Sequence record: NC_054934.1
From: Escherichia phage teqskov
DNA: 64,000 nt
Direction: 5' to 3' (one strand)
Shown: positions 11,160 to 20,549 of the stretch, piece by piece
How the letters are laid out: each line of letters starts with the position of its first letter
How positions within the stretch are numbered: position 1 is the stretch's first letter
Notes under the pieces: generated by a model
The model's input: the letters and a program-made list of their open reading frames with translations, nothing else
Told to the model about the DNA's origin: nothing
Database searches by the model: none
Made by a program: the position numbers and the translations under genes

Positions 11160-11417
11160 ATGAAAACTTATAAAGAGTTTGCTACAGAAACTATTATCAC
11201 TGAATCTTCTCATGGTATGGAAGTAAAGCTTGGAATGGCTTTAGCTGAAGCTGAGCGTCTTTTTTCTCGTATTAAAGAACTTGCTGCTGCAGTCGATCCT
11301 TCATCTTTTAAAGGAGACCAAACTAAAGTTAAAGCACTTTTAGCATTATGCTCTGATGCAGGAGAAATCGCTAAGAACGGTTCTAAGATGAAGAAACGAT
11401 TAGAAGATTTAAAATAA
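11160..11417 (+). CDS. Internal-protein-like ORF with capsid-targeting N-terminus (MKTYKEFATE)
   Basis: 85 aa; N-terminus resembles T4 IP capsid targeting sequence with I/L-x-E cleavage motifs. Confidence 0.55.
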   Translation: MKTYKEFATETIITESSHGMEVKLGMALAEAERLFSRIKELAAAVDPSSFKGDQTKVKALLALCSDAGEIAKNGSKMKKRLEDLK

Positions 11418-11429
11418 TTTCACAAAGTT

Positions 11430-11459
11430 GTTTACACGGGGTTTTAGTAGTGATACTAT
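11430..11459 (+). promoter_or_regulatory. T4 early promoter (PeSL-like cassette copy 2)
   Basis: Same GTTTACAC...GTAGTGATACTATTACC module as at 11100; preceded by duplicated junction gatttaaaataa. Confidence 0.6.
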
Positions 11460-11495
11460 TACCCTATCAAAACAAATGTGAAATTGGAGAATAAA

Positions 11496-11729
11496 ATGAA
11501 AACGTATCAAGAATTTATTGCTGAAGCTGCTGATGTAAAAGTTGAGTTTATTTACATTGGCAAGAAAGATAAAATGGGCGAAATGCCTCATGGAGTTCTT
11601 CGTGATGCATTAGATAATTTCGGTCAACTCGGTGGTGAAGAGTTTGGTGATTATTTTGTTATCTATGGACCAGAAAAAGTCATCGAGAAATGGGCTGATA
11701 AATATAAATCAATTTTTCGTAAAAAATAA
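11496..11729 (+). CDS. Internal-protein-like ORF with canonical capsid-targeting N-terminus MKTYQEFIAEA
   Basis: 77 aa from ATG 11496; GGAGA SD; N-terminus matches the T4 IP targeting sequence as remembered. Confidence 0.6.
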   Translation: MKTYQEFIAEAADVKVEFIYIGKKDKMGEMPHGVLRDALDNFGQLGGEEFGDYFVIYGPEKVIEKWADKYKSIFRKK

Positions 11730-11759
11730 GTTTACTTTTAGATAGGGTAGTGATACTAT
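11730..11759 (+). promoter_or_regulatory. T4 early promoter (PeSL-like cassette copy 3)
   Basis: GTTTAC then TGATACTAT; perfect inverted repeat gatagggta/taccctatc at 11741-11768 flanks the -10. Confidence 0.6.
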
Positions 11760-11787
11760 TACCCTATCTACTACTGAGGAGAATAAA

Positions 11788-11973
11788 ATGAAACGTTGTG
11801 AATTAATTCGAAATGTTGCTATTGCAATTTCTGCTTCCGCTTTTAGTTTTTCAATGTTTGTTGGATTTATATGCGGATTATTAACTACAGCAGAAAATGT
11901 GTTTTCACTTGTAGTAGCATTTTTAATTGGTTTAATCGCTATCGTTATGGATAAAATTTCTAAAGGTGAATAG
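11788..11973 (+). CDS. Small hydrophobic (membrane) protein
   Basis: 61 aa, mostly hydrophobic; GAGGAG SD. Confidence 0.45.
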   Translation: MKRCELIRNVAIAISASAFSFSMFVGFICGLLTTAENVFSLVVAFLIGLIAIVMDKISKGE

Positions 11974-12384
11974 ATGAGTATTAACGAATATTATGTTTAT
12001 GCCGGGGATTATGCAAATCCTTCTCATTTTGAAGGTAATTTAATACCTGATAAAGTTTTTAATACTCCTTTTGAAGCGTGGAGTTGGATTGAAAGTAAAA
12101 ATGGATTTTCTTACCGTTATGTTGAAGTAACTGATTGGAGAGGAACTAAATATCCTAAAGACCATTATTACGTAAATCCATCTAAGGTAAATTTTCTTTT
12201 ATTCGCAGGTGATAATTATTATCCTTGTGGCGGATATGATGATTTAATTGCGTATGCTGAAACAGAAGATAAACTGCGTGATATCATTAAAGAAAATGAA
12301 AATAAACCAGATTATGGTTCCAATCGTTTCGACTGGTGGCAAATCGTAAATGCCCATACTCATGCTATCGTTGATAGAGGCTGA
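11974..12384 (+). CDS. Hypothetical protein
   Basis: 136 aa ORF packed with neighbours; phage-like AT-rich codon usage. Confidence 0.5.
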   Translation: MSINEYYVYAGDYANPSHFEGNLIPDKVFNTPFEAWSWIESKNGFSYRYVEVTDWRGTKYPKDHYYVNPSKVNFLLFAGDNYYPCGGYDDLIAYAETEDKLRDIIKENENKPDYGSNRFDWWQIVNAHTHAIVDRG

Positions 12385-12386
12385 TA

Positions 12387-12680
12387 ATGATTCTTTATGC
12401 TAAAGTATCATCCATTGAAAATGGATATAAATATGATCAAGAAGCAGCTAAAGCCTTGATTGATGATTATGGCATTTTAACATGTTTTGAAGTTGAAAAG
12501 GTTTACATTGACCGTTCATCTTCTCAGGTTAAATTAGTGAAGGAAGACCGTAAATTTAATACAGTAAATTTTGATTTCTTTATTGAAACGGAAAAAGGTC
12601 CTCTTGAATATGATATTTTCAAGAATCCTTTGGGTCTTGAATGTATTGAATATACTTACATTAATATGGTGAGCAAATGA
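12387..12680 (+). CDS. Hypothetical protein
   Basis: 97 aa ORF, tightly packed. Confidence 0.45.
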   Translation: MILYAKVSSIENGYKYDQEAAKALIDDYGILTCFEVEKVYIDRSSSQVKLVKEDRKFNTVNFDFFIETEKGPLEYDIFKNPLGLECIEYTYINMVSK

Positions 12681-13192
12681 ATATTTGTTTAGGTACTACA
12701 ATTCCACAGGGTTACGTAATTGATGTCACTACCTGGGAAAATGATGGTGACAACTATAAAACTAAAACACTGTTTGGCGTAGAAGAGCATGAAATCTTAC
12801 AATTCCAATATCTTTTAAAGAAGTTTAAAAGCAGACATTCTAGTACTAAAGCTGAACGTTATTGTGGTAATGGCTTGTTCAGCGAGCAATCGCTTTTTAT
12901 TTATGAATACTTGGTTGAAGGACTGTTCTCAGAACAACTTTATCCAGAATTCATTAAAAAGGTCTTTGATATAGAAGTTGACCTTGGTAATAAATCCGAA
13001 GAAGACGAAGAACGCATATTTGACTTATTCTTTGTGAATGGTAATAAAGTGCTTGAAGGACTTATTAATATTTTAGGTAATGCTTCTGAGTATTATGATT
13101 ATGATTTTTTGCGTGTAGTTGAGAGTGTTAAATACTCTTATATAGAAGAAGAAATTGTTTTGCCGACCGTTAAAATGTTTAATTTGCTTTAA
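12677..13192 (+). CDS. Hypothetical protein
   Basis: 171 aa ORF, overlaps upstream stop. Confidence 0.5.
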   Translation: MNICLGTTIPQGYVIDVTTWENDGDNYKTKTLFGVEEHEILQFQYLLKKFKSRHSSTKAERYCGNGLFSEQSLFIYEYLVEGLFSEQLYPEFIKKVFDIEVDLGNKSEEDEERIFDLFFVNGNKVLEGLINILGNASEYYDYDFLRVVESVKYSYIEEEIVLPTVKMFNLL

Positions 13193-19059: not shown

Positions 19060-19061
19060 TT

Positions 19062-19069
19062 TATAAATA
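19062..19069 (+). promoter_or_regulatory. T4 late promoter TATAAATA (distal) for gene e
   Basis: Exact TATAAATA. Confidence 0.55.
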
Positions 19070-19094
19070 CCTTCTATAAATACTTAGGAGGTAT
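19067..19094 (+). promoter_or_regulatory. Hairpin sequestering the gene e Shine-Dalgarno in early transcripts
   Basis: atacct (19067-72) pairs with aggtat (19089-94), overlapping the AGGAGG SD; this arrangement is known for T4 e. Confidence 0.55.
19075..19082 (+). promoter_or_regulatory. T4 late promoter TATAAATA (proximal) for gene e, inside the loop of the RBS-sequestering hairpin
   Basis: Exact TATAAATA about 14 nt upstream of the ATG. Confidence 0.6.
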
Positions 19095-19095
19095 T

Positions 19096-19590
19096 ATGAA
19101 TATATTTGAAATGTTACGTATAGATGAAGGTCTTAGACTCAAAATCTATAAAGACACAGAAGGCTATTACACTATTGGCATTGGTCATTTACTTACTAAA
19201 AGTCCATCACTAAGTGTTGCTAAATCTGAATTAGATAAAGCTATTGGGCGTAATTGCAATGGTGTAATTACAAAAGATGAGGCTGAAAAACTTTTTAATC
19301 AGGATGTTGATGCTGCTGTTCGTGGAATTTTGAGAAATGCTAAATTAAAACCAGTTTATGATTCTCTTGATGCTGTTCGTCGCTGTGCATTAATTAATAT
19401 GGTTTTCCAAATGGGAGAAACTGGCGTAGCTGGATTCACTAACTCTTTGCGTATGCTTCAACAAAAACGCTGGGATGAAGCAGCAGTTAACTTAGCTAAA
19501 AGTAGATGGTATAATCAAACACCTAATCGCGCAAAACGAGTCATTGCAACGTTTAGAACTGGCACTTGGGACGCGTATAAAAATCTATAA
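19096..19590 (+). CDS. e: Endolysin (T4 lysozyme)
   Basis: 164 aa, near-identical to remembered T4 lysozyme with a few substitutions (SLSVAK vs SLNAAK; VIATF vs VITTF). Confidence 0.97.
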
Positions 19591-19594
19591 AGTT

Positions 19595-19624
19595 GTTTAC
19601 TTTCTCCTAGAATTGTGATAGTAT
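19595..19624 (+). promoter_or_regulatory. T4 early promoter upstream of denV
   Basis: GTTTAC ... TGaTAGTAT. Confidence 0.55.
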
Positions 19625-19649
19625 ATTCACAGTTACTTGGAGGGATAAA

Positions 19650-20066
19650 ATGACTCGTATTAATTTGACTTTAGTATCTGAACTTGCTGATCAACATTTA
19701 ATCGCAGAATACCGTGAATTGCCACGTGTTTTTGGTATAGTTCGTAAGCATGTGGCAAACGGTAAGCGCGTTAAAGATTTTAAAATATCTTCCGAGTTTA
19801 TTTTAGGTTCTGGTCATGTTACGTTCTTTTACGATAAGTTAGAATTTTTGCGAAAGCGTCAATTAGACATTATAACGGAATGCTTAAAACGAGGGTTCAG
19901 TATAAAAGATACTGAAGTTCCTGACATCAGCGATATTCCAGTAGAATGGAAAAATGATTATAATCCATGCAAATCAGCTATTAAATTGAGTCAACAACGA
20001 CTTGATGAAAAAATTTTAATGAAACCACATTGGTATAAGTATTACGGTAAAAATATTTACATTTAA
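19650..20066 (+). CDS. denV: Endonuclease V (pyrimidine dimer DNA glycosylase)
   Basis: 138 aa; [17 protein letters not shown]...WYKYYGK matches remembered T4 DenV. Confidence 0.93.
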
Positions 20067-20075
20067 AGGAAACAT

Positions 20076-20549
20076 ATGAAAACATATCAAGAATTTATCA
20101 CTGAAGCAGCTATTAATTCTCAAATTATTGCTGAATCTTTTACCGATCTTTTGAAATTTAAAAAAGGTCAAAAAATCACTGCTGTATTGGATGATGGTAC
20201 AGAAGTTGAGATGGATGTACAGGGATATAATTATGCAGTAGATGGAAAACTGTATAATAAATCTCATGCTAAATTTGATTCATTTGACGACTTTGTTAAT
20301 ACAGTTGAAGATGAAAAAACTCGTAGATCCATTGCAACTGGTGATGCTAAGGTTCTTATGGCACATGGTCATGAACGCATTCGCGCTAAACAGAATAAAA
20401 TGGGTGAAGATAATTTTGCATTAGTTGGTTATCAATCTGGTAAACAAACTTATGGCTATCAACGTACTGCTACCATGTATAATAAAAATGGTAAAATCGC
20501 TTTCGTGAATAGTAAAGGTTCTATTCAGTACGTTAAATCGTTCAAATAA
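20076..20549 (+). CDS. Internal-protein-like ORF with capsid-targeting N-terminus MKTYQEFITEA
   Basis: 157 aa; basic; ipII/ipIII locus next to denV, but size differs from T4 IPII (100 aa) and IPIII (194 aa). Confidence 0.6.
   Translation: MKTYQEFITEAAINSQIIAESFTDLLKFKKGQKITAVLDDGTEVEMDVQGYNYAVDGKLYNKSHAKFDSFDDFVNTVEDEKTRRSIATGDAKVLMAHGHERIRAKQNKMGEDNFALVGYQSGKQTYGYQRTATMYNKNGKIAFVNSKGSIQYVKSFK

Follow-up and report, generated by a model that had tools for sequence, protein, structure and literature searches.

Four open reading frames (ORFs) of Escherichia phage teqskov begin with closely similar N-termini, and they raise the question of whether each encodes an internal protein (IP), packaged in the phage head and injected with the DNA, and whether any of the four is new. 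We addressed this in a stretch of 64,000 nucleotides (NC_054934.1; one strand, 5' to 3'), hereafter the window, in which ORF1, ORF2, ORF3 and ORF4 lie on the plus strand at 11160..11417, 11496..11729, 14916..15389 and 20076..20549. Our analysis makes it likely that all four are IP genes, with ip5 (ORF1) and ip6 (ORF2) at the ipI locus, ip4 (ORF4) by denV and ORF3 in a late cassette of its own, and that they have an anti-nuclease role. Ip5, Ip6 and Ip4 are named internal proteins of T2 and T6, and nothing new comes from these three. ORF3 alone lacks an IP annotation in all the records examined, and it is probably a new member of the IP class at a third locus.

Capsid-targeting N-termini and unrelated cargos

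The original prediction held that these ORFs carry the capsid-targeting sequence (CTS) of the T4 internal proteins, followed by I/L-x-E sites of the type cut by the prohead protease and by cargo unlike that of T4 IPI, IPII or IPIII. A scan of every ATG on both strands of the window with the pattern MK[ST][YF]x[EQ]F returned exactly these four ORFs, and the same pattern gave zero matches in 100 shuffled sequences. We also scored 521 ATG frames of at least 50 codons with a position-specific scoring matrix built from ten annotated IP N-termini, with the ORF3 family excluded. The four ORFs ranked first to fourth at 35.6, 35.6, 32.5 and 17.3 bits, the fifth frame reaching 2.2 bits; the weakest of the four scores was that of ORF3 (MKSYAQF).

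An (I/L)-x-E prohead-protease motif directly follows the CTS in all four ORFs, and cleavage (marked here by a slash) is predicted from this motif. ORF1, with the CTS MKTYKEFATETIITE/S, has its site as ITE/S at residue 15, arranged like ITE/A at residue 19 of T4 IPI, an earlier ATE not being an I/L site. ORF2 (MKTYQEFIAE/A) has IAE/A at 10, ORF3 (MKSYAQFLNE/AVLNE/A) has LNE/A at 10 and again at 15, and ORF4 (MKTYQEFITE/AAINSQIIAE/S) has ITE/A at 10 and IAE/S at 20. Beyond the N-terminal processing region, T4 IPI, IPII, IPIII and Ip4 contain zero [LIV]-x-E triplets, a depletion that looks like selection against internal cleavage by the prohead protease gp21.

The four proteins have 85, 77, 157 and 157 aa, as predicted, and isoelectric points (pI) of 8.7, 5.8, 9.5 and 8.9. 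The T4 lengths used for comparison hold for IPI (95 aa) and IPII (100 aa); the 194 given for IPIII (pI 9.5) counts codons including the stop, the protein having 193 aa. With the first 20 residues removed, BLASTP detected similarity neither between any two of the four cargos nor between them and T4 IPI, IPII or IPIII (all E > 1), so the cargos are indeed not orthologs of these T4 proteins; a full-length match between Ip4 and IPII is driven by the CTS.

Three of the proteins were readily placed. The exact ORF1 sequence is an 'internal head protein' in RB68 and other phages, in a cluster that includes T6 'Ip5' (UniProt Q38630_BPT6), with which its cargo is identical from residue 13 on. In teqhad and KAW1E185 the exact ORF2 sequence carries the label 'internal virion protein'; ORF2 shares 84% identity with VR20 'ip6' and matches 249 phage records at 75-100% identity. 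The exact ORF4 sequence, found on 459 contigs, is the 'IpIV internal head protein' of T2, and it matches PF24183 DUF7412 over its full length (5.7e-96, 319 bits against a gathering cut-off of 27, profile positions 1-158 of 158). Apart from this DUF7412 match, scans against Pfam, NCBIfam and PADLOC were negative for all four proteins. PHROGs files ORF1 (phrog_3499 'internal head protein', 3.7e-50), ORF2 (phrog_8111) and ORF4 (phrog_3155) as internal head or virion proteins, and ORF3 in PHROG 2280, which is without an assigned function.

ORF3 and its late cassette

Relative to T4, positions 14866-15420 are an insertion of about 555 bp between the rnaC terminator and e.8, and T6 also lacks ORF3. 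The terminator hairpin downstream of rnaC (AGCCCCGACCGAAAGGTTGGGGCT plus a T-run; 14842..14865, plus strand) aligns with the single T4 copy and is the left copy of a direct repeat, whose right copy (AGCCCCAGCCGAAAGGTTGGGGCT plus a T-run; 15397..15420, plus strand) marks the point beyond which colinearity with T4 resumes. Between the two hairpins, a T4-type late promoter, TATAAATA (14872..14879, plus strand), stands 44 nt upstream of the ATG of the 157-aa candidate internal protein. The promoter box is a perfect match, with a chance expectation of 0.014 per upstream stretch, and the remaining intergenic, gene-proximal late boxes on the same strand precede the late genes 3 and e and one further ORF.

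This arrangement recurs in related genera. The homologue in Jiaodavirus KP1 has the same layout of hairpin, TATAAATA at 44 nt, gene and hairpin; in Tegunavirus fHe-Yen9-01 a late promoter lies 38 nt before two tandem paralogues (gp154-gp153), and Mosigvirus PhAPEC2 has AATAAATA between two hairpins. The fHe-Yen9-01 region (18965-20802, minus strand) holds the ORF3 homologue gp153 and its tandem paralogue gp154 (MLQYNEFLKESLISEA...) behind the single late promoter, and just upstream of them a 52-aa ORF, gp156, with a canonical CTS (MKTYIEFINE...), all three being annotated as hypothetical. Tegunavirus, too, may have an IP locus in this region.

Matches to ORF3 occur in 510 phage records, and all those that are named or listed label it 'hypothetical'. 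Among them are RB51/RB32 (ORF132c; the RB51 label reads 'RB32ORF132c hypothetical protein'), AR1, PP01 and Sf21, with 100% identity. Its ratio of nonsynonymous to synonymous substitution rates (dN/dS) against Escherichia phage REP3 is 0.09. An exhaustive profile hidden Markov model search gave a family of 13 representatives, all apparently members or fragments, and no link of the ORF3 profile to another family; sequence searches of the PDB with ORF3 and Ip4 yielded zero credible relatives. In the predicted ORF3 model (pLDDT 76.8), a KPAPKADPK linker joins a three-helix N-domain to a helical hairpin at the C-terminus. Across the family alignment, in which identity falls to 24-36%, M1 and F7 do not vary, conservation of L8 is at least 90% and an x-E site follows, further conserved features being an AWKS motif and a Pro/Lys/Ala-rich linker. 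Among the N-termini of the family are MKSYAQFLNE, MKTYNEFLNE, MKSYAEFLTE, MLEYSEFLKE, MKFKEFLAE, MINFSDFLNE and MKSFSSFLNE. This CTS-like segment is the best conserved of the protein, and the family occurs in four Tevenvirinae genera.

Published proteomic data bear on two of the four proteins. Liquid chromatography-tandem mass spectrometry of ultracentrifuge-purified particles of Yersinia phage fD1 detected g140, g129 and g146, the last being the IPI ortholog (PMC8309999 supplement). Of these, g140 is identical to ORF3 at 151 of 157 residues (96%), and g129, which is flagged as a particle-associated 'Head protein', is identical to ORF4 at all 157; the fPS-2 paper contains no proteome. The predicted N-terminal peptide of ORF3 is SYAQFLNEAVLNEASSTEIQAVAK if unprocessed and AVLNEASSTEIQAVAK or ASSTEIQAVAK if processed at E10 or E15, and the unprocessed g140 peptide in its fD1 form would be SYTQFLNEAVLNEASSTEIQAVAK.

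Injected cargo, host defence and the alternatives

The window encodes a DNA alpha-glucosyltransferase (45852-47054) and the dCMP-hydroxymethylase family enzyme (57932-58672). Directly after the dCMP hydroxymethylase gene, in the position of T4 beta-gt, comes the gene for a TAGT-family glycosyltransferase of 282 aa (58663-59511), and the phage therefore makes sugar-modified hydroxymethylcytosine (HMC) DNA. We take this layout of sugar-modification genes to resemble the T2/T6 type, and the TAGT-family gene together with alpha-gt suggests a T2/T6-like DNA modification with a second sugar.

For all four proteins we infer packaging and processing in this phage, an anti-defence function and its targets by extension from a course established for T4 IPs. 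The N-terminal CTS of about 10 residues would dock the protein into the prohead scaffolding core, gp21 would remove the CTS at (I/L)-x-E, and the mature cargo, mostly basic, would remain with the packaged DNA. It would then be ejected along with that DNA and thus be able to act before any phage gene is expressed. Most likely it would counter the first-response nucleases of the host against sugar-modified HMC DNA, either GmrSD-type type IV restriction enzymes or similar ones, each unrelated cargo being specific to a different host variant. Since Repoila et al. (1994), diverse IPs are reported to be recognised through a common CTS, and the same work is cited for the named T-even internal proteins.

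The literature describes the CTS as directing packaging and the IPs as a diverse set with only the CTS in common (PMC3012670), and Arbiol et al. 2010 (PMC2839356) refer to more than 30 known IP variants, ascribed to the two IP loci. T4 Ip1, Ip2 and Ip3 each inhibit a distinct GmrSD type IV enzyme (Silas et al. 2025, PMC12373910), and IPIII is required to infect ECOR17 (Srikant et al., PMC9391042). The proposal that divergent cargos are candidate injected anti-defence effectors therefore stands as the best functional guess but not as a new finding: it is the published consensus, since IP diversity has been described, Ip1-3 are known to act against GmrSD and Ip4-10 have already been screened. 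In short, the observation behind the original prediction is confirmed and its interpretation is correct but mostly already known, and it did not single out ORF3, the one gene with residual novelty.

We consider it rather probable that ORF3 is a packaged and processed IP. In favour of this we count a late promoter placed like those of genes 3 and e and kept upstream of the KP1 and fHe-Yen9-01 homologues, a basic pI equal to that of IPIII, purifying selection and the detection of the fD1 homologue in particles. The 'AQF' variant of its N-terminus also occurs in an fHe-Yen9-01 protein of the ipI locus (MKTFAQF...).

Several observations weigh against this account of the four proteins. The CTS of ORF3 reaches 17 bits, where those of the other three reach 33-36, and its position 6 is Q instead of the usual E; the Jiaodavirus and Tegunavirus homologues (MKFKEF..., MLEYSEF...) depart from the MKTYxEF of co-resident IPs. 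A co-variation of ORF3-family N-termini with the CTS of co-resident IPs was not borne out, the IPs of KP1 and fHe-Yen9-01 keeping MKTYxEF, which is mild contrary evidence. Whereas ORF1 and ORF2 (ipI locus) and ORF4 (beside denV) fall inside the two classical IP loci, ORF3 lies outside them, between rnaC and e.8; IP genes are said to be confined to these loci, with early-promoter/stem-loop elements (PMC2839356), which is a generalisation and not a strict definition. Internal [LIV]xE sites occur in Ip5 (two), ORF3 (one) and Ip6 (one) and are counted against Ip5 and ORF3, and Ip6 is acidic (pI 5.8), unlike classical basic IPs. We infer the presence of the four proteins in virions here from motifs and relatives, and 'particle-associated' in fD1 is weak evidence, since that proteome is low in specificity, flagging 113 of 277 gene products (41%), DenV, lysozyme, NudE and dNMP kinase among them (PMC8309999). 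Finally, when ip4-10 were screened against further GmrSD variants, no reproducible inhibition was seen (PMC12373910), so that their targets may lie outside the GmrSD enzymes altogether. ORF3 was probably outside that screen, because named ip genes were tested and ORF3 bears no ip name in the records examined.

Some of these points would fit an ORF3 that is expressed late without being a CTS-packaged injected effector, and that serves instead a cytoplasmic late function or acts as a head-assembly helper or DNA-associated protein. Its CTS resemblance would then be non-functional and stem from shared ancestry or recombination with the 5' ends of IP genes. This reading is favoured by a CTS score half that of the other three, a different regulatory cassette outside the two classical loci and an N-terminus that does not follow the canonical CTS of the IPs in the same phage (KP1, fHe-Yen9-01). 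ORF3 has also never carried an IP annotation, not even from T4 specialists (RB51), and the fD1 proteome is unspecific. Were the N-terminal motif with its LxE non-functional, however, it would be hard to explain why no other segment of this highly divergent family is as well conserved. The recurrence of the 'AQF' variant at an ipI locus, a conserved late promoter that fits a prohead component and a basicity (pI 9.5) like that of IPIII also speak for packaging, and we regard this alternative as unlikely.

Less likely still is that the four proteins are packaged but act mainly as structural or physico-chemical components of the head, where they would neutralise charge, condense DNA or aid ejection. 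In favour of this, three of them are basic, the Lys/Pro/Ala-rich linker of ORF3 is reminiscent of DNA-binding tails, Ip4 is 100% conserved between divergent phages without sign of an arms race, and Ip4-10 lacked anti-GmrSD activity in the published screen. Yet all three characterised T4 IPs are specific anti-restriction proteins, the cargos are unrelated in sequence, and IP genes are dispensable and exchanged as whole units among close relatives, a pattern of accessory host-range genes and not of structural ones. As for the idea that the N-termini are shared by chance, or that the ORFs are not real genes, only the shortness of the motif favours it. It is refuted by the absence of matches in 100 shuffles, the lead of more than 15 bits over the best remaining frame, the occurrence of identical sequences on tens to hundreds of contigs and purifying selection (dN/dS at most 0.09 for ORF1, ORF3 and ORF4), and its probability is negligible.

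Returning to ORF3 as an internal protein, we lean slightly towards the fuller reading that it founds an IP family of Tequatrovirus, Mosigvirus, Jiaodavirus and Tegunavirus, encoded in a late cassette at a third locus (hairpin, TATAAATA, gene, duplicated hairpin), carrying a relaxed CTS (M-x-x-[YF]-x-[EQDS]-F-[LV]-x-E) and delivering cargo against a host defence that is possibly not GmrSD. The cassette would then be gained and lost by recombination between the hairpins, and the cargo would combine the conserved three-helix domain with a variable C-terminal module. If ORF3 is packaged, IP genes also occur beyond the two classical loci, the CTS can vary more widely than the canonical MKTYQEFIAE suggests, and anti-defence screens gain a concrete candidate in a gene listed as 'hypothetical' in 510 phage genomes. 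Injected proteins act ahead of phage gene expression and so set host range against first-response defences, which is relevant to choosing or engineering therapeutic T4-like phages.

The named IP loci, their surroundings and known systems

The best match of the 10-kb region is REP3, a Tequatrovirus (95.8% identity, 95% query coverage; 981 phage records match), and by its sequence the window is T2/T6-like Tequatrovirus DNA. Gene order is that of T4 reversed: 1, 57A, 57B, ORF1, ORF2, trna.4/.3/.2, tRNAs, a homing-endonuclease-like ORF and rnaD/rnaC, then ORF3, e.8 to e.2, nudE, e, denV, ORF4, and vs.8 onward.

The ip5-ip6 module is organised by a direct repeat present in three copies in all, each an early-promoter plus stem-loop cassette on the plus strand. 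Copy 1 (11100..11138; GTTTACA-N17-TACTAT, with the hairpin GAGGTAGTGATACTATTACCTC over the -10 and a promoter-like match at 11101-11129) precedes ip5, copy 2 (11430..11468; 79-83% identical to copy 1) precedes ip6, and copy 3 (11730..11768) lies upstream of trna.4 and bounds the module. The T6 GenBank record has the same arrangement, with Ip5 and Ip6 between 57B and trna.4 and the note 'replaces ipI'. For ip6, a mechanical ORF list begins at GTG 11478, whereas the Shine-Dalgarno sequence, a GGAG a few bases upstream, favours ATG 11496, which is also the annotated start of the 77-aa homologues. Public ip6 starts are inconsistent, with upstream-extended versions of 99 or 98 aa in JLBYU31 and in some metagenome calls.

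Ip6 differs from its REP3 counterpart at 15 of 77 residues, nearly all in codons 45-77, while neighbouring genes show residue differences of 0-6% (protein identity at least 94%). Compared with REP3 and JLBYU31, codons 45-77 (11628-11729) have 28 nucleotide differences and codons 1-44 have 5. As dN (0.26) in codons 45-77 is accompanied by a very high dS (0.93), this half of the gene points to an allele swap, and point-mutational positive selection was rejected as the source of the divergence. With ip5-ip6 in place of ipI, ORF3 present or absent, and alleles that are mosaic, these genes thus behave as accessory host-range genes.

At the other classical locus, two late promoters TATAAATA (at 19062 and 19075; 19062..19082, plus strand) stand upstream of e, and only 9 nt, a promoter-less gap, separate the denV stop from the ip4 ATG, so that these promoters could drive an e-denV-ip4 late transcript. 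Ip4 is identical between this phage and REP3, and its predicted structure model (pLDDT 50.7) was too poor for a structure search. Downstream of ip4, a 195-aa ORF (20643-21230) without a Pfam match carries the Walker-A-like motif GGRQSGKST; the gene at the same position in related genomes is labelled hypothetical or 'putative endoribonuclease'.

Between the loci, only six tRNA genes were found (Gln, Leu, Gly, Pro, Ser and Arg; 13279-14554 region), against eight in T4 and ten in REP3, and 13695-13901 is a gap without a tRNA. A 184-aa ORF with a T5orf172/MUG113 domain (14000-14554) lies between tRNA-Arg and rnaD, T4 segB being located elsewhere. A 171-aa ORF at 12677-13192 has no Pfam match, no T4 counterpart and no CTS; its near-identical homologue in fD1, g142, is flagged as particle-associated in the fD1 proteome.

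Compared with known systems, the window proteins share with T4 IPI*, IPII and IPIII (Ip1-3) a CTS of the form MKT[YF]xEF... followed by (I/L)xE, small size and a mostly basic character, the same two loci for ORF1, ORF2 and ORF4, and, in both phages, sugar-modified HMC DNA. Their cargo sequences are unrelated to those of the T4 proteins, and while T4 Ip1-3 inhibit GmrSD enzymes, Ip4-10 were negative against the GmrSD variants tested. The T4 ipII/ipIII slot between e and denV is empty here, with ip4 on the other side of denV. T2 Ip4/IpIV is 100% identical to ORF4 and differs in nothing of substance, and T6 Ip5 and Ip6 occupy the positions of ORF1 and ORF2 between 57B and trna.4. ORF1 shows no substantive difference from T6 Ip5, whereas ORF2 carries another C-terminal half (codons 45-77) than the commoner Ip6 allele. 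The early-promoter plus stem-loop element before each of ip5, ip6 and trna.4 matches the PeSL-type mobile regulatory cassettes described at IP loci (PMC2839356). The ORF3 cassette departs from that type: its promoter is late, its G+C-rich terminator hairpin comes from rnaC, and it has no early-promoter element; like the PeSL type, its duplicated hairpin gives a repeat-bracketed layout that permits gain and loss by recombination.

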